Below, one piece after another: positions 15,810 to 27,787 of a DNA stretch of 32,000 bases. Origin of the DNA: Dehalococcoidia bacterium. Its GTDB lineage: Bacteria; Chloroflexota; Dehalococcoidia; SHYB01. The stretch covers positions 566,088-598,087 of the forward strand of contig CAXXHW010000001.1 of the NCBI GenBank assembly GCA_963666265.2, read 5' to 3'. The notes below the pieces were generated by a model that was given only the letters and a program-made list of their open reading frames with translations, ran no database searches and was not told the DNA's origin. Every line of letters begins with the position of its first letter. The stretch's first letter is position 1. The position numbers were made by a program, and so were the translations under genes.

Positions 15810-16660
15810 ATCTTTCCAGCGAGCCAGATCTTGTGGGGGGTCGAGAGACGCACCCTGTGGTGATACACATTGTAGCCGTTGGCCTCAATGCGCTTCAGCA
15901 GCTCGCTGTACAGGCCTCGAAGGATAGCGGGACAAGAGCGAGAGCGAAAGGGCACCAGGGGCAGCATGCGGCTCCCCTCCTTGAAGTAGTGCCTGGCCCG
16001 CTCTGCCTGAAAGGCCATCATCTGCACGAACTGGTCGTTGACCACGCCTTGTAACAGGTCGCTCTCCGTATAGCCAAACCGTTCCAGGTCCTCCATGGGC
16101 AGGTAGATGCGGTCCCGATCCGAGTCCTCCTTGATATCCCGAAGGATGTTGACCAGCTGCATCGCGATTCCCAAGTCTATGGCGGACTGCTTGGCCTGGG
16201 AGTCGGAGTAACCGAAAATCTCGACGCAGACCAGGCCCACGACCGATGCTACGCGGTAACAGTAGGTATACAGGTCCTCGAAGGTTGCGTAGCGGGAGAC
16301 GGTGAGGTCCATTTCGACGCCGCTGATGATGTCATCGAAGTATTCGTGAGGGATCCGGTAGCGCTGCACCACGTCGTACAGGGCGACGAAGACCGGGCCT
16401 TCGGGCTCTCCTTTTAGGCACGCATGCAGCTGATCACGGTACTGCGCCAGAAGCCTGACCTTCTGTTCCAGCTCGATATCGTCGTCGGAGTAGTCGTCGC
16501 ATCCCCTGCAGAAGGCATAGGCAACGTAGATAGCCCGGCGTTGCTGCGCCGGTAGGGAGAGGAACGCGAAGTAGAAGTTACGGGCCCGGTCGCAGGTTAA
16601 CGCCTGGCAGAAGCGGTATGATTCCTCCAAGGACGTTTCCGTGGCGGCTCCGCTAGCCAT
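15755..16660 (-). CDS. hpnD: presqualene diphosphate synthase (squalene/phytoene synthase fold)
   Basis: Track ORF 15755..16789 trimmed to ATG 16658-16660, which overlaps the hpnC stop (ATGGCTAG). SYRFCQALT..ARNFYFAFLSLP..RRAIYVAYAFCRGCDDYSDD and DIKEDSDRDRIYLP Asp-rich motifs. Confidence 0.85.
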   Translation of the reverse strand: MASGAATETSLEESYRFCQALTCDRARNFYFAFLSLPAQQRRAIYVAYAFCRGCDDYSDDDIELEQKVRLLAQYRDQLHACLKGEPEGPVFVALYDVVQRYRIPHEYFDDIISGVEMDLTVSRYATFEDLYTYCYRVASVVGLVCVEIFGYSDSQAKQSAIDLGIAMQLVNILRDIKEDSDRDRIYLPMEDLERFGYTESDLLQGVVNDQFVQMMAFQAERARHYFKEGSRMLPLVPFRSRSCPAILRGLYSELLKRIEANGYNVYHHRVRLSTPHKIWLAGKIWTTTTLKSLLPNAKSSS

Positions 16661-17549
16661 GACTTCGACCGCCCGTTGCCCGTTGGAGAGCCAGCTTCGC
16701 CAGCGCGCCGAGGGCCAGCCGGGTCTTCTTCGCCTTGGACACCACGGGGCGCTTGGAGAGAACGTCGTACCCCTGTTGCTCAATCGCATCGAGGACGGCC
16801 AGTCCTCCCATGGTGAACAGCTTCAGGTCCAAGCGCAGCTCCCCATGGACCGTGTCGACCAGCTTCACGCCTTCGTGGAACAGGGACCGGGCCCGGTCCA
16901 CCTCGACTGCCATCAGGTCTCGAAACTGGGGATTGAACTCGCCGCGGGCCAGCTCCTCCTCGGTATAGCCGAAACGCTCCATGTCTTCCAGGGGTAGGTA
17001 GATGCGGCCCATGGCGTAGTCCCGCCGCACGTCCTGCCAGAAGTTCGCCAGTTGCAGCGCCGTGCACGTGGCGTCGGAAAGCCGGTGGCGCTCTGGGTCG
17101 GCGTAACCGAAGACATAGAGGACCATGCGCCCCACCGGGTTGGCGGAGTGCTCGCAGTAATGCAGGACATCGGCATACGTGGGGTAACGTTGGCTCCGCT
17201 GGTCCATCCGGTTGGCCTCTATCAGCTTGAGGAAGGGCTCGGGCGGTATGTCGTGCCTGCGGATGGTCTGCTGGAGGGCCGTCATGATCTGCTCGTGGGG
17301 AGAGCCGTCATAGCACAGCCGGAGCTCCTTTTCCCAGAGGTCCAGTAGCTCCAGGCGCTCCCCCGCCGCCTCGTCGCCCAGGTCGTCCGTATGGCGGCAG
17401 AAGGCGTAGACGCTGAAGGTGGATGGCCGCAGGGCCTTGGGGAGAAGCCAGGAGCCGACGGTGAAGTTTTCATAATGACCCTTGGCCAGCCGCTCGCAAT
17501 AGGCAAAGGCCTCCTCCACCGTTGAAGCCTTAGACTGGGTGTCTACCAT
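16653..17549 (-). CDS. hpnC: hydroxysqualene synthase (squalene/phytoene synthase fold)
   Basis: 298 aa. AFAYCERLAKGHYENFTVGSWLLP...VYAFCRHTDDLGDE and DVRRDYAMGRIYLP. The HYENF motif is typical of HpnC. Confidence 0.85.
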   Translation of the reverse strand: MVDTQSKASTVEEAFAYCERLAKGHYENFTVGSWLLPKALRPSTFSVYAFCRHTDDLGDEAAGERLELLDLWEKELRLCYDGSPHEQIMTALQQTIRRHDIPPEPFLKLIEANRMDQRSQRYPTYADVLHYCEHSANPVGRMVLYVFGYADPERHRLSDATCTALQLANFWQDVRRDYAMGRIYLPLEDMERFGYTEEELARGEFNPQFRDLMAVEVDRARSLFHEGVKLVDTVHGELRLDLKLFTMGGLAVLDAIEQQGYDVLSKRPVVSKAKKTRLALGALAKLALQRATGGRSHG

Positions 17550-17602
17550 CGTTTCCCGTCCGCCGTACAGGGTAGCGTGCTACGCCCGTACCAACCTCCG
17601 TC

Positions 17603-18811
17603 TCAAGAGCCCCATCTCTTCTCGACATAATCCTCGACCATCTTTATAAAATCCTCGGCGATGCCGGACCCTTCCAGGAAGGTCGTGCGTTCCCCGTCAA
17701 CGAAAACCGGCGCTCTTGGCGACTCCCCTGATCCCGGCAACGATATGCCGATATTTGCGGTCCTGGACTCCCCAGGGCCGTTGACCACGCATCCCATGAC
17801 CGCCACCTTGAGCTCTTCCGCTCCCGCATAGCGCGCCTTCCACTGTGGCATCTTCGAGTCCAGGTGCGCCTGTATGTCCCGTGCAAGCTCCCGGAACAGG
17901 ACGGAAGTGGTGCGGCCGCACCCTGGGCAGGCCGTCACGGCAGGCCGGAAGGAGCGCAGCTGCAAAGCCTGCAAGATCTCCTGGCATAGCCGCACCTCGC
18001 GGGCCCGGTCTCCTCCGGGCTCGGGGGTAAGGCTGGACCTGATTGTGTCTCCTATGCCGTCGTAGAGGAGTGTGGAAAGGGCCGCGGTGGTGGCGACGAT
18101 CCCTTTGGTGCCCATGCCGGCCTCGGTTAGGCCGATGTGGAGAGGGAGGTCACAGCGTCGGGAGATCTCTCGGTAGGCCTCTACCATCTGGGGGAGGCGG
18201 GACACCTTGCAGGAGATAATGATCTTATTCTCCGGCAGTCCGAGCGAGACGGCGGCCTCTGCGCTGGCGATGGCGCTCTCCACCAGCGCTTCCCGCTCGA
18301 CCTCATCGCCGGTGAGGGGCGACTGTCGCTGGTTATTGGCGTCCATCTTCTGGCCGAGGAGTTCCTGGTCCAGACTGCCGGCGTTAACCCCGATTCTGAC
18401 GGGCTTATCCAGCTCCCGGGCGATCTCGATGAAGGTGCGAAAGTTGTCATCATGCCGAGGGCCTCGGCCCACATTACCGGGGTTTATGCGGTACTTTTCC
18501 AGTGTCTTTGCGCAGTCCGGGTGGTCTCGGAGGAGGCGGTGCCCGATAAAATGGAAGTCGCCGATGAGGGGAACCCCACAGCCTACGTCGTCAAGCCGTT
18601 TCCGAATCTCCGGCACCGCCGCGGCAGCCGCATCGTTGTTGACGGTCACCCGGACAAGCTCGCTTCCGGCTTCGGCCAGGAGCTTCACCTGGGCGACGGT
18701 CGCCCGAATGTCCGAGGTCTCGGTGTCCGTCATCGACTGAACGACGATGGGGTTTTCACCACCGATGGGCACACTGCCTACAAAGGTTACTTTTGTTGGG
18801 CGCCTTTTCAC
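17603..18811 (-). CDS. ispG: 4-hydroxy-3-methylbut-2-en-1-yl diphosphate synthase (MEP pathway)
   Basis: 402 aa. GTG start 3 nt after the shc stop. [32 protein letters not shown] and GCVVNGPGE Fe-S ligand blocks. Confidence 0.92.
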
Positions 18812-18814
18812 CGG

Positions 18815-20809
18815 CTACCGCCCTCCGGAGTCGCCTTCGGCTGCCTGCCGATACTGGCCCAGGGCCATCAGCGGCCAATAATCACGGTACATGTGATAGT
18901 TGATCATGAAGTCGTTGGGAAATCCTGTTCCAGTGAACTCGGGTTCATCCCAGGAGCCGTGCCCTTGCTGTTTCATCAGGAGATATTCTACGCCCCTCCG
19001 GGCGGCGTGGCCGGCGGCGTCCCCAGAGGCTATTAGGGCCAGGAGCGCCCAGCTGGTCTGGGAAGGAGTACTGGGTCCCTGGCCGCCCCGGGAAGGGTCC
19101 TTATAGGACTCGCAGCCCTCGCCCCAGCCGCCATCAGGCTGCTGGCGCTTCTCCAGCCAGCTTACCGACTTGCGAATATAGGGTTGGCTCATGTCCTCCC
19201 CAGCCCATTTGAGGGCCGGCACGACCGCTCCCAGGCCGTAGAGATAGTTGACGCCCCAACGTCCCCACCAGGAACCGTCCGGTAGCTGGGTTTCCTTGAG
19301 GTAGGCCACGCCCCGCTCGATCGCCTGAGACGTGCCCCTGAGCCCCAGCCGTCCAAGCATCTCCACCATGTGGCCGGAGACATCCTCCGTCGGGGGGTCC
19401 AGTACCTCACCGAAGTCGCAGAATGGGATGTGGGTGACCCACTCCTTGGCGTTGTCTACGTCAAATGAGCCCCAGCCTCCGTTCTTGCTCTGCATGCTCA
19501 TCGTCCAATCGACACCACGTTGGATGGCGCGCCGCATCCTGGGGTCGTCGTTCCACTGCATCTTATGCAAGGCGATCAGGATTATCGCCGCGTCGTCGAT
19601 GTCCGGGTAGTTATCGTTTTTGAACTCGAAGGGCCAGCCCCCCGGGAGGGTGTTAGGGTTCTTGACCTGCCAGTCTCCTCCGCGGTCCAGAATTTGCTGC
19701 TTGATAAGCCATTCGGCGCCGTTCACCAGGGCAGGATGGCTCGGCGGTAGGCCGGAGTCTTGCAGGGCGAGCATGGCGAGGCACGTGTCCCAGCCGGGAG
19801 ATACGCACGGCTCCGTATGGAGAGTCTCGTCTGTTTCTCTCATGAAGGCATCGAATCCCTGGATCCCCGCTTTCATCACAGGATGGTCGATGGAGTAGCC
19901 GAGGGTGTGGAGCGCCATAAGGGAGTAGACCCAAGGGGGCTGGATGCCTCCCCAGGTGCCGTCCTCTTCCTGGCGGGCGATGATCCACTGCTCTGCTTTG
20001 CGAAGAGCGGTCCGGCGAATGGGGTTCCACGGGGATGCTTCCAGTAGCCGCAGCGATTTATCCACTCCACGGAAGAGCCCGTTCCAACTGAGCAGATCCC
20101 CCTTTTTCCCGTAGGAAGAAGAGGTCCGGTCGCGGCCTGATGGGAACAGCTCGTCCAGCTGCGCCCACTCGGGTACCTCGCAGACGGGCTTGAGAGTGAG
20201 CAGGATGGTGCAGGCGACGATGGTGCCCCGCGCCCAGGAGGCGAATTCATAGATGTTGAAGGGGAACCAGCTGGGGAGAAGGACCAGCTCCGCGGGCAAA
20301 ACGGGTGTGTCACGCCAGTCCCATTGCCCGAACATGGCCAGCCACATCTTCGTAAAGATTCGGACGTTGGGCAGGCCGCCCTGGGCGAGGATGAACCGTC
20401 TCGCCTTTGTCCTGGCAGGGTCGTTGGGGTCCACGCCCGCCAACTTCATGGCGAAGTAGGCTTCCGTGGTGATGCTCAGGTCTCCGGGGGCCCCGTACCA
20501 GATAGGCCAGCCTCCGTCCGGAAGCTGTTTGGATTTCAAATAGCTGACAATCTTCCCCCAGCGTTTGGGGTCCGGTATTCCCAGGAAATGGGTCAGCAGG
20601 ACGAACTCAGCATGGATGGAGCAGTTCGCCTCAAGCTCGCCCCACCAGTATCCCTCTGGGTACTGGAGTCCCAGGAGGTACTCTCTGGACCGTTCGATAG
20701 CCCGGTCCAGCTCAGTCGAGACCCCGCGGTGCGTCGCCGCACCGTTAAAGGGCGGCGCTGCGCTGGCGGGCTGGGCCTGGGTGAGCTCACGCAGCTGACC
20801 GTCACTCAT
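18815..20809 (-). CDS. shc: squalene-hopene cyclase
   Basis: Track ORF trimmed to ATG 20807-20809 (GGAGGAG upstream), which overlaps the hpnG stop (ATGAGTGA). DxDD-type protonation motif YPDIDDAA. Multiple QW repeats (QLPDGSWWGRWG, QQPDGGWGE, QGHGSWDE, QEEDGTWGG). Confidence 0.93.
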   Translation of the reverse strand: MSDGQLRELTQAQPASAAPPFNGAATHRGVSTELDRAIERSREYLLGLQYPEGYWWGELEANCSIHAEFVLLTHFLGIPDPKRWGKIVSYLKSKQLPDGGWPIWYGAPGDLSITTEAYFAMKLAGVDPNDPARTKARRFILAQGGLPNVRIFTKMWLAMFGQWDWRDTPVLPAELVLLPSWFPFNIYEFASWARGTIVACTILLTLKPVCEVPEWAQLDELFPSGRDRTSSSYGKKGDLLSWNGLFRGVDKSLRLLEASPWNPIRRTALRKAEQWIIARQEEDGTWGGIQPPWVYSLMALHTLGYSIDHPVMKAGIQGFDAFMRETDETLHTEPCVSPGWDTCLAMLALQDSGLPPSHPALVNGAEWLIKQQILDRGGDWQVKNPNTLPGGWPFEFKNDNYPDIDDAAIILIALHKMQWNDDPRMRRAIQRGVDWTMSMQSKNGGWGSFDVDNAKEWVTHIPFCDFGEVLDPPTEDVSGHMVEMLGRLGLRGTSQAIERGVAYLKETQLPDGSWWGRWGVNYLYGLGAVVPALKWAGEDMSQPYIRKSVSWLEKRQQPDGGWGEGCESYKDPSRGGQGPSTPSQTSWALLALIASGDAAGHAARRGVEYLLMKQQGHGSWDEPEFTGTGFPNDFMINYHMYRDYWPLMALGQYRQAAEGDSGGR

Positions 20810-21650
20810 GGTGCTCCTCCCCGGTGTTGCCACAAATCTTAGAAAAGAAAAGGGAGGCAAAGGCCCCCAAATTGTTGCTGGCGCGGCGGGCTCGCCGTGC
20901 CAGACTCGGTACGCTGAGCAAATCCTTGGGATGCGTCAAGAAATACAGGGCAGCGCTCAATGGCCGGACCTCGCCCATCTCATCTTCGAAACGCCCGTAG
21001 TCTGGCAGCGGGTCATCTGCCCTATCGGAGACCGCCCTCACGGCGAGAAAAGGCACCCCATGCTTCTTTGCAACCTCTCCTATCCAGTAGCTCTCCATCT
21101 CTACGGCCTTGACAGGATAGCGTGTCCCCAACCATTTTTTCATCACCGGCCCCATGACGTTCGGCACGGTCATGAGGTCCCCGGTATGCGTAGGTATGCC
21201 TTCATCCTTCAGTACCAGTGTCGCCGCCTCCAGTAACGCGCTGTCAGAAGTTACGTCGTTTCCATCCAGCCGTTCACCCTGAGCTTGTCGAAAGGCGTCC
21301 TCTGATTCGGCAAACTCGCCACGAGCGGGGCTTTTTATCTTCGCGATGGCCTCAGCGTCCAGGGGGTAAACCCTCTCGCCCAGGACCAGATCTCCTCCTT
21401 CTACTTCCTGGGCCACGCCCCCGGCTAAGCCTATGGAAATGAGGGCCTCCGGACGGCATGTCTCCATGACAGCGAGAGCGCCTTCACGGGCCCGTTCTTT
21501 TCCTATCCCCGATTGGACCAGGGCGACCGGCAATCGGCCGACGGTGCCACGGCGGATGATACAGCCCCGGACGCGTGACTGCTGCTGGACCTGGACCAGC
21601 GGCTCCAGGCGGCTCAGTTCCCTGCCAAGGGCTGCGATGAAGACCAGCAC
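20802..21650 (-). CDS. hpnG: hopanoid-associated nucleoside phosphorylase-family protein (adenosylhopane nucleosidase type)
   Basis: 282 aa, GTG start immediately following the orf132 stop. PNP_UDP_1-like blocks: SGIGKERA, LISIGLAGG, VEMESYWIGEVAKKHGVPFLAVRAVSDRADD. The hpnG assignment rests on fold plus position between hpnH and shc. Confidence 0.75.
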   Translation of the reverse strand: MLVFIAALGRELSRLEPLVQVQQQSRVRGCIIRRGTVGRLPVALVQSGIGKERAREGALAVMETCRPEALISIGLAGGVAQEVEGGDLVLGERVYPLDAEAIAKIKSPARGEFAESEDAFRQAQGERLDGNDVTSDSALLEAATLVLKDEGIPTHTGDLMTVPNVMGPVMKKWLGTRYPVKAVEMESYWIGEVAKKHGVPFLAVRAVSDRADDPLPDYGRFEDEMGEVRPLSAALYFLTHPKDLLSVPSLARRARRASNNLGAFASLFFSKICGNTGEEHHE

Positions 21651-22049
21651 TTAGTCCACGCTCCCTGGCCCGGTGTCACTCGTTGAGTCTGCTCCATGAC
21701 CTGCCGCCTCGCGGGCAAGGCCGTCCTTCTCCCGTTGCTTGCGATCTACCCAGGCCTGCCAGGACTTGCCTGCGGCGGTGTCCCTGCCGGTGAACTTGAT
21801 AGTCGCTATGTCAGCATAGACGAGGGTGTACGGTCCATTCCCTTCTTCATCTATGACCTGAATGAAGGGCTCGGGCGCCTCGCGGTTTCTGTTGAAGATG
21901 TAGCCCACGATCTCGGAGCCGTCCGTCTTGACGATGGTGGTGTTCCCCCGATAGTCGAACGCCAGGTCAATGATGCGCTCCAGAGTCACCTCTCCGCCAA
22001 GCTCCGGCGTCCAGCCCTGTAGACTTTTCTCCTCGGTCATTACAACCAC
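21651..22049 (-). CDS. hypothetical protein (132 aa) embedded between hpnH and hpnG
   Basis: GTG 22049 (GAGGG 6 nt upstream) or ATG 22040. Soluble, no TM segment. EVTLERIIDLAFDYRGNTTIVKTDGSEIVGYIFNRN...YADIATIKFTGRDTAAGKSWQAWV plus an acidic/Ser-Thr tail. No family recognised. Confidence 0.6.
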   Translation of the reverse strand: MVVMTEEKSLQGWTPELGGEVTLERIIDLAFDYRGNTTIVKTDGSEIVGYIFNRNREAPEPFIQVIDEEGNGPYTLVYADIATIKFTGRDTAAGKSWQAWVDRKQREKDGLAREAAGHGADSTSDTGPGSVD

Positions 22050-22109
22050 TCTTTACCCTCTAAGCGAATGAGTACGCCGTTAATGGGGAATACCCCCATG
22101 TGATCAATA

Positions 22110-23132
22110 TCAAAGTTTCCCGGTAACCGTTGTTAAGGCCGTGTTCCAAATCCCTCTCACGGACCCAAAGGTCTCGTTGACGGCCGTCGCCTCATAGCCG
22201 CAGTGGACCAGGCAGTCGGCACATTTTTCGTTGCCGCTGCTCCTGCCGTAGTTTTCCCATGCGGTCTCCTCAATCAGCTCTTTAAAAGTCTCCGCATACC
22301 CCTCTTGAAGCAGATAACACGGTCGCTGCCATCCAAACATGTTGTACAAAGGGTTGCCCCAGGGGGTGCACTCGTAGTCGTGCTTGCCCATCAGGAACTG
22401 GAGAAAGAGGGGTGATTGGTTAAATTTCCATTCCTTTTTCTTGTTGGATAGAATATCGCTAAAAAGGTTGTTGGTCCGCTCCTTCCGCAGGAAATGTTCC
22501 TTGTTTGGCGCCTTGGCGTAGCTGTATCCGGGAGAGATCATCATCCCCTCGATGTCGAGGTCCATCATCTCATCAAAGAATTCCCGGACTTGCAAAGGGG
22601 CGGCATTGTCGAAAAGAGTGGTGTTGGTGGTCACCCGAAAGCCGCGCGCGACGGCCTCTTTGATTCCCTCGACTGCTTGATCGTAGACTCCATCCCGGCA
22701 CACGGACTCGTCATGCGCCTCTCTCAGACCGTCCATGTGGACGCTGAAGCTCAGGTATTTTGAAGGGGTGAAGGCCCCTTTTTGCAGAGTATCCTTCAGC
22801 AGGATGGCGTTAGTGCACAGATAGATATATTTGCCGCGCTTCTCCAGGCCCTCCACCAACTCATGAATGTGTGGGTACATGAGGGGTTCCCCACCGGCGA
22901 TACTGACCATTGGGGCTCCGCATTCGTCGACTGCCTCCAGCGCCTTTTCCAGGGGCATGTTTTTCTTGATAATCTGGGATGGATACTGGATCTTGCCGCA
23001 GCCGGAGCAGGCTAGATTACAACGGAAAAGCGGCTCCAACATGAGGACCAGTGGATACTTCTGTCTCCTGGCCAATTTCTGCTTCAAGACGTAACTCGTC
23101 ACTGCCCATGCCTGGGATACCGGCACTCCCAT
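22110..23132 (-). CDS. hpnH: adenosylhopane synthase (radical SAM)
   Basis: 340 aa. YPLVLMLEPLFRCNLACSGCGKI (CxxxCxxC). Overall collinearity with HpnH-type radical SAM proteins, including the C-terminal Cys-rich CADCLVHCGYE. Confidence 0.9.
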   Translation of the reverse strand: MGVPVSQAWAVTSYVLKQKLARRQKYPLVLMLEPLFRCNLACSGCGKIQYPSQIIKKNMPLEKALEAVDECGAPMVSIAGGEPLMYPHIHELVEGLEKRGKYIYLCTNAILLKDTLQKGAFTPSKYLSFSVHMDGLREAHDESVCRDGVYDQAVEGIKEAVARGFRVTTNTTLFDNAAPLQVREFFDEMMDLDIEGMMISPGYSYAKAPNKEHFLRKERTNNLFSDILSNKKKEWKFNQSPLFLQFLMGKHDYECTPWGNPLYNMFGWQRPCYLLQEGYAETFKELIEETAWENYGRSSGNEKCADCLVHCGYEATAVNETFGSVRGIWNTALTTVTGKL

Positions 23133-23180
23133 ACTTACAGCCCCGTTCCTAGTCGCTCATCAGTGCTGTGAAACGTGCTC

Positions 23181-23189
23181 ATGATAGCA
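23181..23189 (-). promoter_or_regulatory. candidate extended -10 promoter element (TGcTATCAT) for hpnH
   Basis: Reverse strand reads ggcttaTGcTATCATgagc about 45 nt upstream of the hpnH ATG, inside a 196-nt gap. No convincing -35. Confidence 0.3.
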
Positions 23190-23328
23190 TAAGCCACTCT
23201 GGTGGGTATGCTCCGCCCCGGAGGTCCCGTGCCCGTTGCCGTAGTCCCCGCGTGCCTGAACGTGCCCAAGGATAAGAGCGATACGACAGGGTTCGCGCGG
23301 AGGAAGTGGAGATACATGTACGGGGACA

Positions 23329-24360
23329 CTAAAAGTCACGCTCGGAAAGAAATGTTACCAGTTCCTGGCATTCTTGCTTGGTACTAGGGGTTAGATCCAG
23401 CCCCTCCAACTCTTTGAGTGTCTGATGCGCCTGATCTCTCACGATCCCCTGACAGAAATCTTGGCTTTTGACCTCGTCGAGAATAGTGAAGAGGTCCGTC
23501 ATGTCCTTATCAGAGAGTGGCTCCTTGCTGCCATAGATCGTTGCGAAGCGCGCTGCGGAAGGGTTGTCGGAGGCGTGCCAGAGGGCGTGCACCACCGGCA
23601 AAGATTTTTTCCGCCTGTGGAGATCACTGGCTGTGGGTTTGCCCGTCGCTTCTTCAAGGCCCCATATGCCCAGGATGTCGTCCCGGACCTGGAACAGGCG
23701 TCCAATGCCGAAGCCGAAGCCGCGCATCCCCTCGACCGTGGCCGCACTCTCGCTACCGATGACAGCGCCGATATGGAGCGCGCATTCCAAGAGAGCCCCC
23801 GTTTTCTTTCCGATCATGAGCAAATAGTCGTCGACTGAGACGGAAGGACGCTGCTCGTAGCTAAGGTCCAGGACCTGACCCTCGATCATTTGCGCGCAGG
23901 CCTTGGTAAGGATGCGGGAGACGTTGAGGGTAGTCGCGGCGGGTAGGGAGGTCGAGCCATTGTGGAGCAGCGCTAGGTGAGCGAGAATGTTCATCGCATC
24001 CCCGGAGTTCAGGCCGTGGCTGTGACCCCAACAGAACCATAAAGTGGAGCGGTGGTGCCGCTTGGTATCGCCGTCCTGGATGTCGTCGTGGATTAGCGAG
24101 AAGTTGTGAATGAGTTCGATGGCTGCCGCCGCGGGAAGGGCCCGGTTCCAGTCCCCTCCGACCGAATCACATGCGAACAGGCAAAGGGCGGGCCGAACCG
24201 CTTTCCCTGTGACGGTCTCCGTCGGGTGGAATTCCTCATCCACCCAGCCCATGTGGTACCGGAGCATGTCATAGAGGGGAAGATCGCCCTGCGACAGCGC
24301 GCTTCGGAGTTCGGCGTCGATGTGGGGCCGGAATCTCGAGAAGACGTCGGGTAGCTGCAT
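23329..24360 (-). CDS. short-chain polyprenyl diphosphate synthase (FPP/GGPP synthase family)
   Basis: Track start is a TTG at 24363; the ATG at 24358-24360 is preferred. First Asp-rich motif LIHDDIQDGD and second FQVRDDILG. An aromatic residue (F) five positions before the first motif is consistent with a short-chain product. Confidence 0.88.
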   Translation of the reverse strand: MQLPDVFSRFRPHIDAELRSALSQGDLPLYDMLRYHMGWVDEEFHPTETVTGKAVRPALCLFACDSVGGDWNRALPAAAAIELIHNFSLIHDDIQDGDTKRHHRSTLWFCWGHSHGLNSGDAMNILAHLALLHNGSTSLPAATTLNVSRILTKACAQMIEGQVLDLSYEQRPSVSVDDYLLMIGKKTGALLECALHIGAVIGSESAATVEGMRGFGFGIGRLFQVRDDILGIWGLEEATGKPTASDLHRRKKSLPVVHALWHASDNPSAARFATIYGSKEPLSDKDMTDLFTILDEVKSQDFCQGIVRDQAHQTLKELEGLDLTPSTKQECQELVTFLSERDF

Positions 24361-24438
24361 CAAACTCTGCTCTGGCCACTCCCTTGGGGGGAGCCGGCGT
24401 GGAGATTGCGGCTCCGTACCTCGGCTAACGATGCTGGG

Positions 24439-24613: not shown

Positions 24614-26731
24614 CTAGGAGGCGCTGGCCTCTTTGGCCTTTTCGTCAGCGATCGATCCGGTAAACGGCGGCGACTCCGATGCGAACAACGCGTCAAGCTC
24701 TGTCCCCTCGATGGTCTCGTGGGTGATGATGTGGCGCGCCAGTTGTTCCAGCTTGCCGCGATCAGTAGTAAGAATGTGCTCCGCCTGGTGCCTGGCGTCA
24801 TCGATGAGCCCGCTGATCTCGTCGTCTATCTCCTCCGCGACCCTGTCACTGTAATCGCGCTGCTCCGATATCTCTTTGCCAAGGAACACCATCTCTTGCC
24901 TCTGGCCGTAGGTGCGGGGGCCCAGTCCCGAGAGCCTGCGGGAGCTCTTCACAAGAACGTTGACGCCGCCATCGGGGCCGGTCTCGACCCCGGCTTTGGC
25001 CAGCACCTCAAGCAGGCTTGAATCCGGCTCCTTGCGGGACCGGTAGAGCTTGCCGCCGTTCACGGTTAGGAGAAGATCGTCACCGTACACCTCAATGCTT
25101 CCGACATCGCCCGCGCGGGCCCAGGCGATCATGGTGCTGATGGGCACTTGTTCGGAGACGCCGTCTCGCTCATGACTCATGCCGTATGAGGTAACCATCT
25201 TTTTGGCGATCTTGGTGGCATTCTCCAGGTCGCTGGAGGCGCCGGTGGTGATATCGCCAAAGACGATGCGCTCCGCAGTGCGGCCACCCAAGGCTACCGC
25301 AAGCATCGCCTCGAATTGCTGCCTGCTATAGAGGAACCGGTCCTCGTCTGGGAGCAGGCGGGTGTAGCCTCCCATAGACCCTCGGGGAATGATGGAGATC
25401 TTGTGCACGTGGTCCGCGTGCTCCATATGATGGGCCACCAATGCGTGGCCGGCCTCATGGTAGGCGGTCACTTCCTTTTCCCGGGGGTTGATGATCCGGC
25501 TCTTGCGCTCGGGTCCGGCGATGACTCGGTCTGCCGCCTCTTCGAGCTCTGAAGTGCCTATCAGCTTCTTGTTACGGCGGGCTGCCAGGATCGCGCCCTC
25601 GTTGACCAGGTTGGCCAGATCGGCGCCGCTGAATCCAGGCGTTTGTTTGGCGACGGTATCCAGGTCCACCTCTTCCTCTAGAGGTTTCCCTTTGATGTGG
25701 ACGTTCAGGATCGCTATCCTGCCGGAGATATCAGGCGCGTCGAGCACGACACGGCGGTCAAAGCGGCCAGGTCTCAACAGCGCTGGGTCGAGGATGTCCG
25801 GTCTATTGGTAGCTGCGATGAGGATGATATTGATGCTGGAATCGAAGCCGTCCATCTCGACGAGGATCTGGTTAAGAGTCTGCTCTCTCTCGTCGTGGCC
25901 GCCGCCCAGCCCTGCTCCCCGGTGGCGGCCCACCGCGTCTATCTCGTCTATGAAGATGATGCAGGGCGCGTTTCGTTTGGCCTGGTCAAAGAGGTCCCTG
26001 ACCCGAGAGGCGCCCACGCCCACAAACATCTCGACGAACTCACTGCCGCTAATATGGAAAAAGGGCACCCCGGCCTCGCCGGCTACCGCTCTTGCCAAGA
26101 GTGTCTTCCCCGTACCGGGCGGTCCAACCAGGAGTACACCCCTGGGAATCCGAGCGCCCAGCGCGGAGAATCGCTCCGGGAACTTTAAGAACTCCACGAC
26201 CTCCTGAAGCTCTTCCTTGGCCTCAACAACTCCCGCAACATCGGAAAAGGTAACGGTCGTGGTATTTCCGGTAAACCTTCGAGCACGGCTTCTTCCGAAG
26301 CTCATCGCCTGGTTGTTGCTCCCCTGGGCCTGACGCATCATGAACAGGATAATCGCGCCAAAGAAGATCAGGGGTAGGAAGGTGAGCATTACACCACCGA
26401 GGTTGCTCCATGAGCTCGACGACTTCACCTCGACGCGAACGGCATCCGCTCCTGAGATTGGGACACCGCCTGCCTCCAACAGCTCCAGGATGCTGACATC
26501 GCTCTCTTTGCGCGATTTCAGCTTATCCCCCTCTGTCGTCAAGGCCTTGATCTTGTCACCATCGACGACGATCTCCTCGATCTTCCCATCCTTGGCCAGA
26601 GTGATGATCCTCGTGATACTGACATCTTCTTCGCTGGACGAGGAGCCACCAAAGACGTTTATGAAAATAAGCACTATCGCCACAAGGATGAGGAGATAGA
26701 TGATGCTATTTCTCACCCAGCGTTGGTTCAT
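24614..26731 (-). CDS. ftsH: ATP-dependent zinc metalloprotease FtsH, with ~82-aa insertion in the M41 protease domain
   Basis: 705 aa. TM1 [18 protein letters not shown] and TM2 [17 protein letters not shown]. Walker A GPPGTGKT, Walker [33 protein letters not shown], zinc motif HEAGHA. Extra residues ~521-602 lie between YGMSH and [26 protein letters not shown]. Confidence 0.93.
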
Positions 26732-26821: not shown

Positions 26822-26850
26822 ATTATAACAAATATGTGCCGTCTCCGTAA
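26822..26850 (-). promoter_or_regulatory. candidate ftsH promoter (-35 TTACGG, 17 nt, extended -10 TGtTATAAT)
   Basis: Reverse strand reads TTACGGagacggcacatatttgtTATAATgg. The leader then contains hairpin CAGGGTG-gcgatgt-CACCCTG (26739-26759), directly abutting the GGAGG Shine-Dalgarno. Confidence 0.45.
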
Positions 26851-26919
26851 AAAGACAGCAGGAAAAAAGGCCCCACGTTCTTCAGGCCCTGCCAGGTGTA
26901 CGGTGGCGATCAGGTATGC

Positions 26920-26925
26920 TATCAT
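26920..26925 (+). promoter_or_regulatory. candidate extended -10 element (TGcTATCAT) for the greA-like gene
   Basis: caggtaTGcTATCATgttac about 60 nt upstream of ATG 26984. Same 12-mer tatgctatcatg as upstream of hpnH. Confidence 0.3.
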
Positions 26926-26983
26926 GTTACTGTATAAAGCCGGTGACCCTGCTAGAGTTGCTTACCCAAGGAGGCTGCGTCTT

Positions 26984-27787
26984 ATGCCCGATCCCGCAAC
27001 CGTTTGCCTGGGGGACGCTGTAACAGCTTTCTTGGTCGGTCAGAGCGCAAAAAACACTCCTGCTTTCCAGCAAGAGCTCCAGCGGATGGTGAGGTGGTAC
27101 GGACGAGACAGAGACCTGTGCGCGTTGAGCCCTTGGGAGATAGAGAGTTTCGGACAGAGCAGCGGTGCAGACTCCTCAGCAAAAATCGCTCCGGTGAAAG
27201 CCTTTCTAGCCTACGTCTATAAAGAAGGCGTGACTACCATAAACCTGGCGAATCACCTGAAGGTCAAGCGGACTCCCATACGGCAGAGACAGGCACGGAG
27301 AGTGGCAGCCCAGGCCGTCGCACGCCTATCCCCCGAGGGGCTTCAACGGATCAAAGATGACCTGGAAGGGCTTAAGGGACAGCGCATACGTGTAGCCGAC
27401 GACATCAAACGGGCCATGGCGGACAAGGACTTTCGGGAGAATGCTCCCCTGGATGCCGCGCGGGAGCAGCAGGGTCATCTCGAGTCCCGTATTCGAGATC
27501 TGGAACAGACCCTGAGCCATGCAGTGTCAGTGGATGAAGGCGGATTTCCGGAGGCTGGGTTCGGGGTATCCAGGCTGGGCAGCCGGGTCGTCGTCCACGA
27601 TATGGAGGTTGGCGAAGAGTTAACATACACGCTGGTTGACCCCTCAGAAGTAGACCTGGTTAAGGGCAAGATATCTGTCGATTCCCCGGTAGGAAAGGCG
27701 TTCTTGAACAGGTCTCCCGGCGAGATGGTCGAAGTCAATGCTCCCGGAGGAGCGGTGCAGTACCGGATCGAAAGTATCGACAGATAA
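26984..27787 (+). CDS. greA: GreA/GreB-family transcript cleavage factor fused to a ~113-aa N-terminal domain resembling an integrase SAM-like/core-binding fold
   Basis: Track ORF 26834.. trimmed to ATG 26984 (AAGGAGG 9 nt upstream). C-terminal ~150 aa align with E. coli GreA (LKGQRIRVADDIKRAMADKDFRENAPLDAAREQQGHLESRIRDLEQTL; ISVDSPVGKAFLNRSPGEMVEVNAPGG). The N-terminal part has no Gre counterpart. Confidence 0.8.
   Translation: MPDPATVCLGDAVTAFLVGQSAKNTPAFQQELQRMVRWYGRDRDLCALSPWEIESFGQSSGADSSAKIAPVKAFLAYVYKEGVTTINLANHLKVKRTPIRQRQARRVAAQAVARLSPEGLQRIKDDLEGLKGQRIRVADDIKRAMADKDFRENAPLDAAREQQGHLESRIRDLEQTLSHAVSVDEGGFPEAGFGVSRLGSRVVVHDMEVGEELTYTLVDPSEVDLVKGKISVDSPVGKAFLNRSPGEMVEVNAPGGAVQYRIESIDR

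Follow-up and report, generated by a model that had tools for sequence, protein, structure and literature searches.

We analysed a 32,000-nt stretch of DNA from a Dehalococcoidia bacterium (assembly GCA_963666265.2, contig CAXXHW010000001.1, positions 566,088 to 598,087 of the forward strand), hereafter called the window, in which positions are counted from the first letter. The ftsH gene of the window (24614..26731, minus strand) is a complete, single open reading frame (ORF) of 705 amino acids (aa), and its product carries an 81-residue domain (aa 522-602; 24926..25168, minus strand) within the M41 peptidase domain. Judged by sequence comparison and predicted fold, this insert is a diverged copy of the FtsH N-domain, the extracytoplasmic domain between the two transmembrane (TM) helices, nested in the cytoplasmic M41 domain, and its homology to the N-domain is established. 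The insert is real, is widespread in one clade, and is not noted in any source name examined. As an explanation of the whole, we consider it likely that the N-domain copy was gained once in the distant past, descended vertically with repeated loss, and serves as an accessory module of the cytoplasmic ring.

Sequence and predicted fold relate the insert to the FtsH N-domain

The limits of the insert were determined by phmmer alignment with PDB sequences. Residues 6-521 of the window protein aligned with residues 9-523 of Thermotoga maritima FtsH, and residues 603-686 aligned with 524-607, indicating that residues 522-602, which lie between YGMSHE and LGPRTYG, are extra. When these residues were deleted, the region aligned with T. 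maritima FtsH 479-607 with 129 residues on both sides and no net indel. The insert-deleted segment was also collinear with E. coli, Thermus and Aquifex FtsH, yeast YME1 and human AFG3L2. An earlier, sequence-only reading of this DNA had placed the insert at 24926-25171 (codons 521-602, about 82 residues), which is correct to within one codon; the exact limits are codons 522-602, 81 residues.

The same reading had counted 28 identical positions of 70 by hand between the insert and the N-terminal loop. BLASTP of the insert against the N-domain of its own protein gave a stronger likeness, with 35 of 79 positions identical (44%), two 1-residue gaps and an E-value of 3e-13 for the single comparison. 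The hhalign comparison that had been proposed, here run between the two families, likewise found the two segments to be related; 38 inserts against 38 N-domains gave a probability of 99.9% and an E-value of 3e-33 over 76 columns aligned end to end. A search with PF06480 had been expected to hit twice. Two FtsH_ext stretches were found in the whole protein, but the insert alone scored 16.4 bits (E 0.011) and did not reach the gathering cut-off of 25.5 bits. It covered profile positions 26-97 of 103, and the PF06480 model also includes TM1. Taken individually, 20 of the 38 inserts reached PF06480 at E <= 0.01. The insert thus departs from the family in two formal respects, the curated score and the position between TM helices. 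When the insert was used as a phmmer query against 1.84 billion representative proteins, the N-termini of many FtsH proteins were found.

The whole protein was modelled as a monomer with AlphaFold2 (mean predicted local distance difference test score, pLDDT, 81.7), and the insert was also modelled separately (pLDDT 78.7). In the whole-protein model, pLDDT was 81-92 over aa 531-590 of the insert. The helices (H) and strands (E) of the insert model were H531-539, E543-549, E552-557, E562-566, H573-579 and E590-595, and those of the N-domain model were H39-47, E51-57, E60-65, E70-74, H81-87 and E99-102; the element order was given as beta-alpha-beta-beta-beta-alpha-beta in both. Foldseek searches of the PDB with the insert model returned FtsH periplasmic N-domains as best matches (2MUY, 4V0B, 7WI3 chains and 4M8A), with a probability of 1.00 and TM-scores of 0.5-0.6. 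The SRKE motif is common to the insert and the N-domain. The core claim of the sequence-only reading, an N-domain copy inside the protease domain, is therefore borne out by sequence, element order and predicted fold. As for the source, which that reading took to be the protein's own N-domain, the N-domain homology stands, and an own copy is not strictly separable from one donated by a paralog.

An intein or other self-splicing insertion was also considered. The insert starts with RDGVSEQ and ends with RRLSG followed by LGP, and Pfam found only FtsH_ext; this candidate was rejected, as was a mobile element.

By its sequence, the protein that hosts the insert is a bona fide FtsH. In the ORF, Pfam recognised FtsH_ext, AAA, AAA_lid_3 and Peptidase_M41, and phmmer against all PDB sequences matched T. 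maritima FtsH (7TDO) with an E-value of 6.6e-188. Two N-terminal TM helices around an extracytoplasmic domain, an AAA+ module and an M41 zinc site are all present. TM1 (aa 4-27; 26651..26722, this and the following segments being on the minus strand) was predicted as a helix at aa 3-27, with hydropathy windows above 1.6 from aa 4, and TM2 (aa 108-136; 26324..26410) as a helix at aa 108-136, with a hydropathy signal at about 108-135. Between them lies the N-terminal extracytoplasmic FtsH_ext domain (aa 34-107; 26411..26632), which was matched by PF06480 at aa 10-94 (E 1.7e-11) and is presumed to be the source type of the insert. The AAA+ ATPase module with its lid (aa 199-398; 25538..26137) consists of Pfam AAA (PF00004, aa 199-330, E 1.1e-46) and AAA_lid_3 (aa 355-398). 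Peptidase_M41 (PF01434, E 3.8e-62) matched in two stretches, the first at aa 412-522, corresponding to profile positions 1-111 of 191. The N-terminal part of the peptidase (aa 412-521; 25169..25498) contains HEAGH (425-429), D501 and the helix ending in YGMSHE, and the C-terminal part (aa 603-686; 24674..24925) contains the LGPRTYG loop and the C-terminal helices. In a 70-sequence alignment, Walker A, Walker B, the residues of the second region of homology and the pore-loop F (MFVG) were all invariant. The M41 zinc site, H425, E426 and H429 with the third ligand D501, was invariant as well and aligned to the T. maritima site. The canonical FtsH blocks are thus intact, as the sequence-only reading had stated, and the product is apparently active and looks like a working protease.

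Topology and position of the insert in the protease ring

The 19-residue Kyte-Doolittle mean of the window FtsH exceeded 1.6 only at TM1 and TM2, indicating that the N-domain lies outside the membrane and the insert on the cytoplasmic side. No hydrophobic segment flanks the insert, the maximal 19-residue mean in aa 515-610 being 0.73, and the insert must therefore stay in the cytoplasm with the protease domain. This agrees with the earlier claim that a module which normally faces outside has been moved into the cytoplasmic protease ring.

Because the insert-deleted segment is collinear with the AFG3L2 structure 6NYY, the insertion site could be placed on the human m-AAA protease. YGMS|LGP corresponds to AFG3L2 FGM(666)NEK(669)|VG(671)QIS(674); the site itself corresponds to K669|V670, and M518, G604 and T607 of the window protein to M666, G671 and S674, respectively. 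This mapping relies in part on what we take to be the AFG3L2 sequence, and it agrees with the five residue identities quoted in Puchades et al. Because the site maps to K669|V670, the insert is placed at the ring centre, where subunits meet in a load-bearing contact, and not in a loop at the periphery. In AFG3L2, M666 packs into a hydrophobic pocket between adjacent subunits, the M666R substitution abolishes hexamer recovery, and the E668-G671 loop lies at the centre of the protease ring and mediates inter-subunit contacts (Puchades et al., 10.1101/551085). The "central protrusion" of AFG3L2 comprises residues 673-695, and the loop region is a mutation hotspot in spinocerebellar ataxia type 28 (SCA28) (10.1101/551085). 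According to the alignment and the text of the same paper, the LGPRTYG loop that follows the insert is the counterpart of this protrusion.

Distribution of the insert

The 120 best full-length FtsH matches, from Dehalococcoidia/Chloroflexota metagenome-assembled genomes (MAGs), were used as the sample for insert counts and trees. An insert of 78-84 residues was present at the same site in 58 of them, and the other 62 had a single residue there. This ortholog alignment, which the sequence-only reading had called for, thus showed a wide spread of the insert. The reading had also named an outcome that would speak against novelty, namely that the insert is a common, annotated feature of an FtsH clade. 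It is indeed a clade feature, found in many Dehalococcoidia/Chloroflexota FtsH proteins, but the databases annotate these as plain FtsH; the source names were plain FtsH, from a "Dehalococcoidia bacterium", "Chloroflexota bacterium" or "Chloroflexi bacterium". In the full-text literature searched, no description of an FtsH N-domain copy nested in M41 was found, which is absence of evidence in that literature.

The identical protein was found on contigs of the ENA assemblies ERZ26167216 and ERZ25766445 and in NCBI. The window gene differed from the two ENA copies by three synonymous third-position substitutions, of which one, at codon 555, lies in the insert. Near-identical cluster members, with one residue different, were located on contigs of up to 3.39 Mb. 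An insert-bearing gene was also present in the named MAG GCA_015661265.1 (locus L001), with the same gene neighbours as in the window. At this locus (contig JACVYC010000057.1, 2742-4724) the insert-bearing ftsH was called as three ORFs of 211, 201 and 256 aa; the split reflects either frameshift errors of the assembly or a pseudogene.

Searches with the insert itself were less productive. The insert query against the 1.84 billion representatives returned further insert-bearing fragments (P0002, P0060, P0061, P0063, P0065 and P0069) beside many ordinary N-termini. A profile search with the insert alignment in a 5.8-billion-protein collection gave one short fragment only, and a search with the insert plus its flanks returned fragments only. 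When species-representative genomes were scanned for the insert, all seven of the seven confirmed loci were ordinary N-domains of insert-less FtsH proteins. These seven had matched through the common SRKEPDSS motif, and the scan is uninformative on the taxonomic range of the insert. One further protein, P0079 (563 aa), has a Sir2-like N-terminus, then an FtsH fragment with the insert, then an unrelated C-terminus, and probably stems from a misassembled contig and not from a real fusion.

Descent and probable repeated loss of the insert

In a neighbour-joining tree of the joint alignment, the 58 inserts were separated from the 120 N-domains by one split. Pairs of inserts were on average 44.5% identical, compared with 37% for pairs of N-domains from the proteins that carry them. 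Within a single protein, the mean identity of the insert to the N-domain was 31%, and no protein of the set exceeded the 44% of the window protein; this indicates that the duplication is ancient. Distances between inserts correlated with those of 454 core columns (Spearman 0.40), and none of 500 Mantel permutations was as high. For 49 of the 58 proteins, the nearest insert belonged to one of the five nearest core relatives. The inserts share the conserved motifs PIS, VYGxDLL, RSRKE and GLGGL. Since all inserts group together and their divergence follows that of the host gene, these comparisons strongly suggest one old gain followed by vertical descent, and not recurrent duplication or lateral spread. 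Where it was kept, the insert appears, on strong sequence grounds, to be under purifying selection. A hidden Markov model (HMM) of the inserts scored N-domains of the clade at up to 82 bits and the best N-domains among the 1.84 billion representatives at 79-84 bits, which would fit an origin within this FtsH lineage.

The presence of the insert was patchy on the core tree. Insert-bearing and insert-less proteins were interleaved, with 84-100% support for several mixed clades, and 12 Fitch changes were counted (9-14 over 200 bootstraps; 41 for shuffled states). The nearest core relatives of the window protein, P0144 and P0146 (86% identity), have no insert, and the nearest insert-bearing one, P0140, is 84% identical. 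The insert-less P0144 (L014) and P0167 (L015) and the insert-bearing P0150 (L016) occupy the same locus as the window gene and L001, where ftsH lies between a divergent 266-267-aa GreA-like gene and polyprenyl synthase/radical-SAM genes. The closest pair with and without the insert, P0162 and P0220, was 94% identical in the core and 85% identical in nucleotides. The two stem from one sample, ERZ26167216, and both have a hydrolase, a small ORF, a GreA-like gene and a DUF3090 gene (unrelated to DUF3463) as neighbours. Because positional orthologs lack the insert, we infer with some force at least nine clean losses of the entire module.

The nucleotide sequences around the junction were compared. 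Within 40 codons of it, insert-less genes were nearest to their insert-bearing sisters and not to other insert-less genes, which favours in-situ deletion over the import of an insert-less segment. No foreign conversion tract was found around the junction in insert-less genes; the flanks followed the sister relationship with mild local fluctuations only. Between the window (24800-24925) and L014, third-codon-position identity was 0.79 over the 40 codons 3' of the junction and about 0.5 elsewhere in the gene; this rise may be noise from a small sample.

In sample ERZ28763718, the insert-bearing P0197 (L011) and the insert-less P0223 (L012, 614 aa) were found on two contigs of nearly equal size (3,330,002 and 3,329,525 bp, respectively), which suggests that some of these genomes carry insert-bearing and insert-less FtsH as paralogs. 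P0197 adjoins a DNA ligase gene and a 155-aa GreA gene, and P0223 adjoins genes for GrpB and a Fer4/CCG protein. With its different gene context, P0223 is probably a paralog.

Proposed role and alternative explanations

In the history that we propose, an in-frame duplication and insertion of the FtsH N-domain would have taken place in an ancestor of the Dehalococcoidia/Chloroflexota FtsH lineage. The insert would then have been inherited vertically under purifying selection and cleanly lost at least nine times. An insert-bearing hexamer would carry six extra domains of ~9 kDa, gathered close to the six-fold axis. They would most plausibly lie on the side of the protease ring that faces away from the membrane, because the protrusion loops and the translocating substrate occupy the chamber side. 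As a loop insertion between two TM helices, the N-domain has adjacent termini. Solved N-domains self-associate around this same axis, and 4V0B was deposited as a hexameric N-domain. Adjacent termini together with self-association would make the N-domain a pre-adapted cassette for this site. On this analysis, the insert most likely serves the cytoplasmic ring as an accessory module for assembly or docking, which may provide extra inter-subunit contacts, a docking surface for partners or substrates, or both.

Several points weigh against this explanation. The exact split that unites the inserts appeared in only about 40% of the bootstraps (79 of 200), the alignment having 76 columns. At least nine losses mean that the module is not essential. 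The placement of the six inserts, on the distal face and ring-like or splayed, comes from the published description of a homolog, and the segment just after the insert (aa 601-624) had low pLDDT in the monomer model, which would fit a segment that is ordered only in the hexamer. In six independent contrasts between sisters with and without the insert, no residue elsewhere in FtsH consistently co-varied with it. Because no substitution consistently accompanies its presence or absence, no docking surface is indicated; global associations with insert presence, such as Y/H at positions 647 and 667, are confounded by phylogeny. The junction is a further difficulty. All 62 insert-less relatives share the canonical YGMS-x-x-LGP junction, mostly with R before LGP, as seen in P0144, P0167, P0204, P0216, P0220, P0246 and others. 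Such uniformity is odd and unexpected for at least nine independent losses. It would speak for homologous recombination or gene conversion, which might have swapped segments among alleles, paralogs or co-occurring populations and so produced the patchy distribution. The junction has the identical canonical length in all 62 genes. R, at the position of AFG3L2 K669, precedes LGP in five of six insert-less sister lineages, and the insert-bearing sisters have G. No direct repeats or microhomology that could explain clean excision were found at the insert borders, orthologs with and without the insert occur together in sample ERZ26167216, and the closest pair shows a mild dip in nucleotide identity 5' of the junction. 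However, the flanks point the other way, with L018 and L014 still nearest to their insert-bearing sisters within 40 codons on each side (0.79/0.86 and 0.75/0.81), and the insert phylogeny tracks the core, which argues against lateral spread. We regard recombination as an unlikely cause of the patchiness.

The other alternatives concern the origin and the value of the insert. An artefact, in which a chimeric assembly or a frameshift brought coding sequence for the N-terminus into the 3' portion of the gene, has nothing in its favour except that the architecture is odd a priori. With an identity of only 44% to the N-domain, the copy is no repeat collapse. It is also present in independent assemblies, which differ at synonymous positions, and 57 other clusters have diverged inserts at the same site, some on contigs of more than 3 Mb; an artefact of this kind can be dismissed for practical purposes. 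A domain captured from a paralogous FtsH, or from a non-FtsH protein with the same module, would change the donor only and not the nature of the feature. The window insert is 46% and 45% identical to the N-domains of L002 and L003, two distant Chloroflexota FtsH proteins, and 44% to its own; the module also occurs in non-FtsH proteins, and at least one extra type of insert-less FtsH paralog exists in a different genomic context (L012). But the N-domains of the clade match the insert HMM as well as the best found among the 1.84 billion representatives, those closest to the inserts in the tree come from insert-bearing proteins, and the non-FtsH copies are more distant (34-40% identity), which makes another donor very unlikely. 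Finally, the insert might be a tolerated passenger, a duplicated domain without a function of its own in a low-harm loop, kept or lost by drift. The nine or more losses among the 120 relatives, close positional orthologs included, and the lack of consistently co-varying residues would agree with such a passenger. It is hard to reconcile with an insert that has persisted in lineages so diverged that their synonymous sites are nearly saturated (third-position identity about 0.5), is kept at 78-84 aa, more conserved than the bona fide N-domain, furnished with near-invariant motifs and confidently predicted to fold. Moreover, the site is no permissive surface loop; it is a tightly packed inter-subunit contact at which single substitutions in AFG3L2 abolish hexamers. 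A mere passenger is thus rather improbable, and a useful but dispensable module fits both the conservation and the repeated loss.

A bolder extension of the accessory-module explanation is that the six inserts assemble around the six-fold axis into a second "crown" on the membrane-distal face, mirroring the extracytoplasmic N-domain hexamer. We hold this arrangement to be possible but doubtful. If it were true, the FtsH particle would have homologous caps at both ends. The one in the cytoplasm would act as a clamp on the protease ring, at just those contacts between subunits that are disease-critical in human AFG3L2. Gating of the axial opening, or docking of partners specific to the lineage, might be further functions of this cap. 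In that case, evolution would have re-used the N-domain within one polypeptide as a portable C6 assembly cassette.

Related modules and gene neighbourhood

An FtsH_ext-like module was also observed outside FtsH, in P0059, P0075, P0092, P0084, P0132, P0105, P0089, P0106 and P0108. P0059 (1122 aa) had 13 matched stretches of the module, and the membrane-anchored P0106 and P0108 had two tandem copies; other copies were combined with PKD, with cadherin and Por_Secre_tail, or with RCC1 repeats. Pfam called FtsH_ext in none of these non-FtsH proteins. It seems to be a cell-surface domain that combines promiscuously and is largely unannotated.

In the window, ftsH adjoins a GreA-like gene with a long N-terminal extension (26834-27787, plus strand). 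This neighbour is kept beside ftsH across the clade, as in L001, L014, L015, L016, L017 and L018, and is usually transcribed divergently. Of the 317 aa encoded by the ORF in the window, only aa 165-316 are taken up by the GreA/GreB domains; homologs were called at 266-271 aa. Directly downstream of ftsH lies a hopanoid-type isoprenoid cluster (16653-24363, minus strand). It comprises, all on the minus strand, genes for a polyprenyl synthase (23329-24363), a radical SAM/DUF3463 protein (22110-23132), a PNP_UDP_1 phosphorylase-family protein (20802-21650), a squalene-hopene cyclase (18815-20860), GcpE/IspG (17603-18811) and a squalene/phytoene synthase (16653-17549). No tRNA or Rfam family was found by scans of the 32,000-nt window.

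Relation to known systems and significance

Canonical FtsH proteins (T. maritima 7TDO/2CE7, E. coli 7VHP/7WI3) have the same order of TM1, extracytoplasmic domain, TM2, AAA+ and M41 and all catalytic motifs in common with the window FtsH, which becomes collinear with them when aa 522-602 are deleted. At the insertion site, the 15 solved FtsH-family sequences that were matched have no additional residues, whereas the M41 domain of the window protein is split by an 81-residue folded domain. In AFG3L2, the insertion site falls in the homologous loop E668-G671; the human protein differs there from other FtsH-type proteases by small changes of the loop only and has no inserted domain. The FtsH N-domain (PF06480; 2MUY, 4V0B, 4M8A) resembles the insert in sequence, element order, fold (TM-score about 0.6) and the SRKE motif. 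In contrast to it, the insert has no flanking TM helices and is thus cytoplasmic, stays below the Pfam gathering score when taken alone, and has its own motifs, VYGxDLL and GLGGL, and higher conservation.

Folded accessory domains nested in loops of ring-forming AAA+ enzymes are familiar from the I-domain of HslU and the M-domain of ClpB/Hsp104, six copies of which decorate one face of the ring and modulate interactions with partners or substrates. Those domains belong to the ATPase module, and none of them duplicates another domain of its own polypeptide. In the window FtsH, by contrast, it is the protease domain that takes up the guest, and the guest copies the extracytoplasmic domain of the same enzyme.

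FtsH is universal and has been studied intensively, and the solved bacterial, mitochondrial and chloroplast structures that were matched have no folded domain inserted into the protease ring. Domain-based annotation will report a split Peptidase_M41 for insert-bearing proteins and may miss the second FtsH_ext. The architecture in this clade is unusual in that a module is used a second time, on the opposite side of the membrane, by the same polypeptide, and in that the second copy sits in a loop which keeps the protease ring together and whose human counterpart is the SCA28 hotspot. This makes it possible to test how much structural load the ring centre can bear, whether the N-domain can hexamerise or dock as an autonomous unit, and how the membrane-distal face and the axial opening of FtsH are used. 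Positional orthologs with and without the module, at 86-94% core identity, provide a natural deletion series for biochemical comparison.

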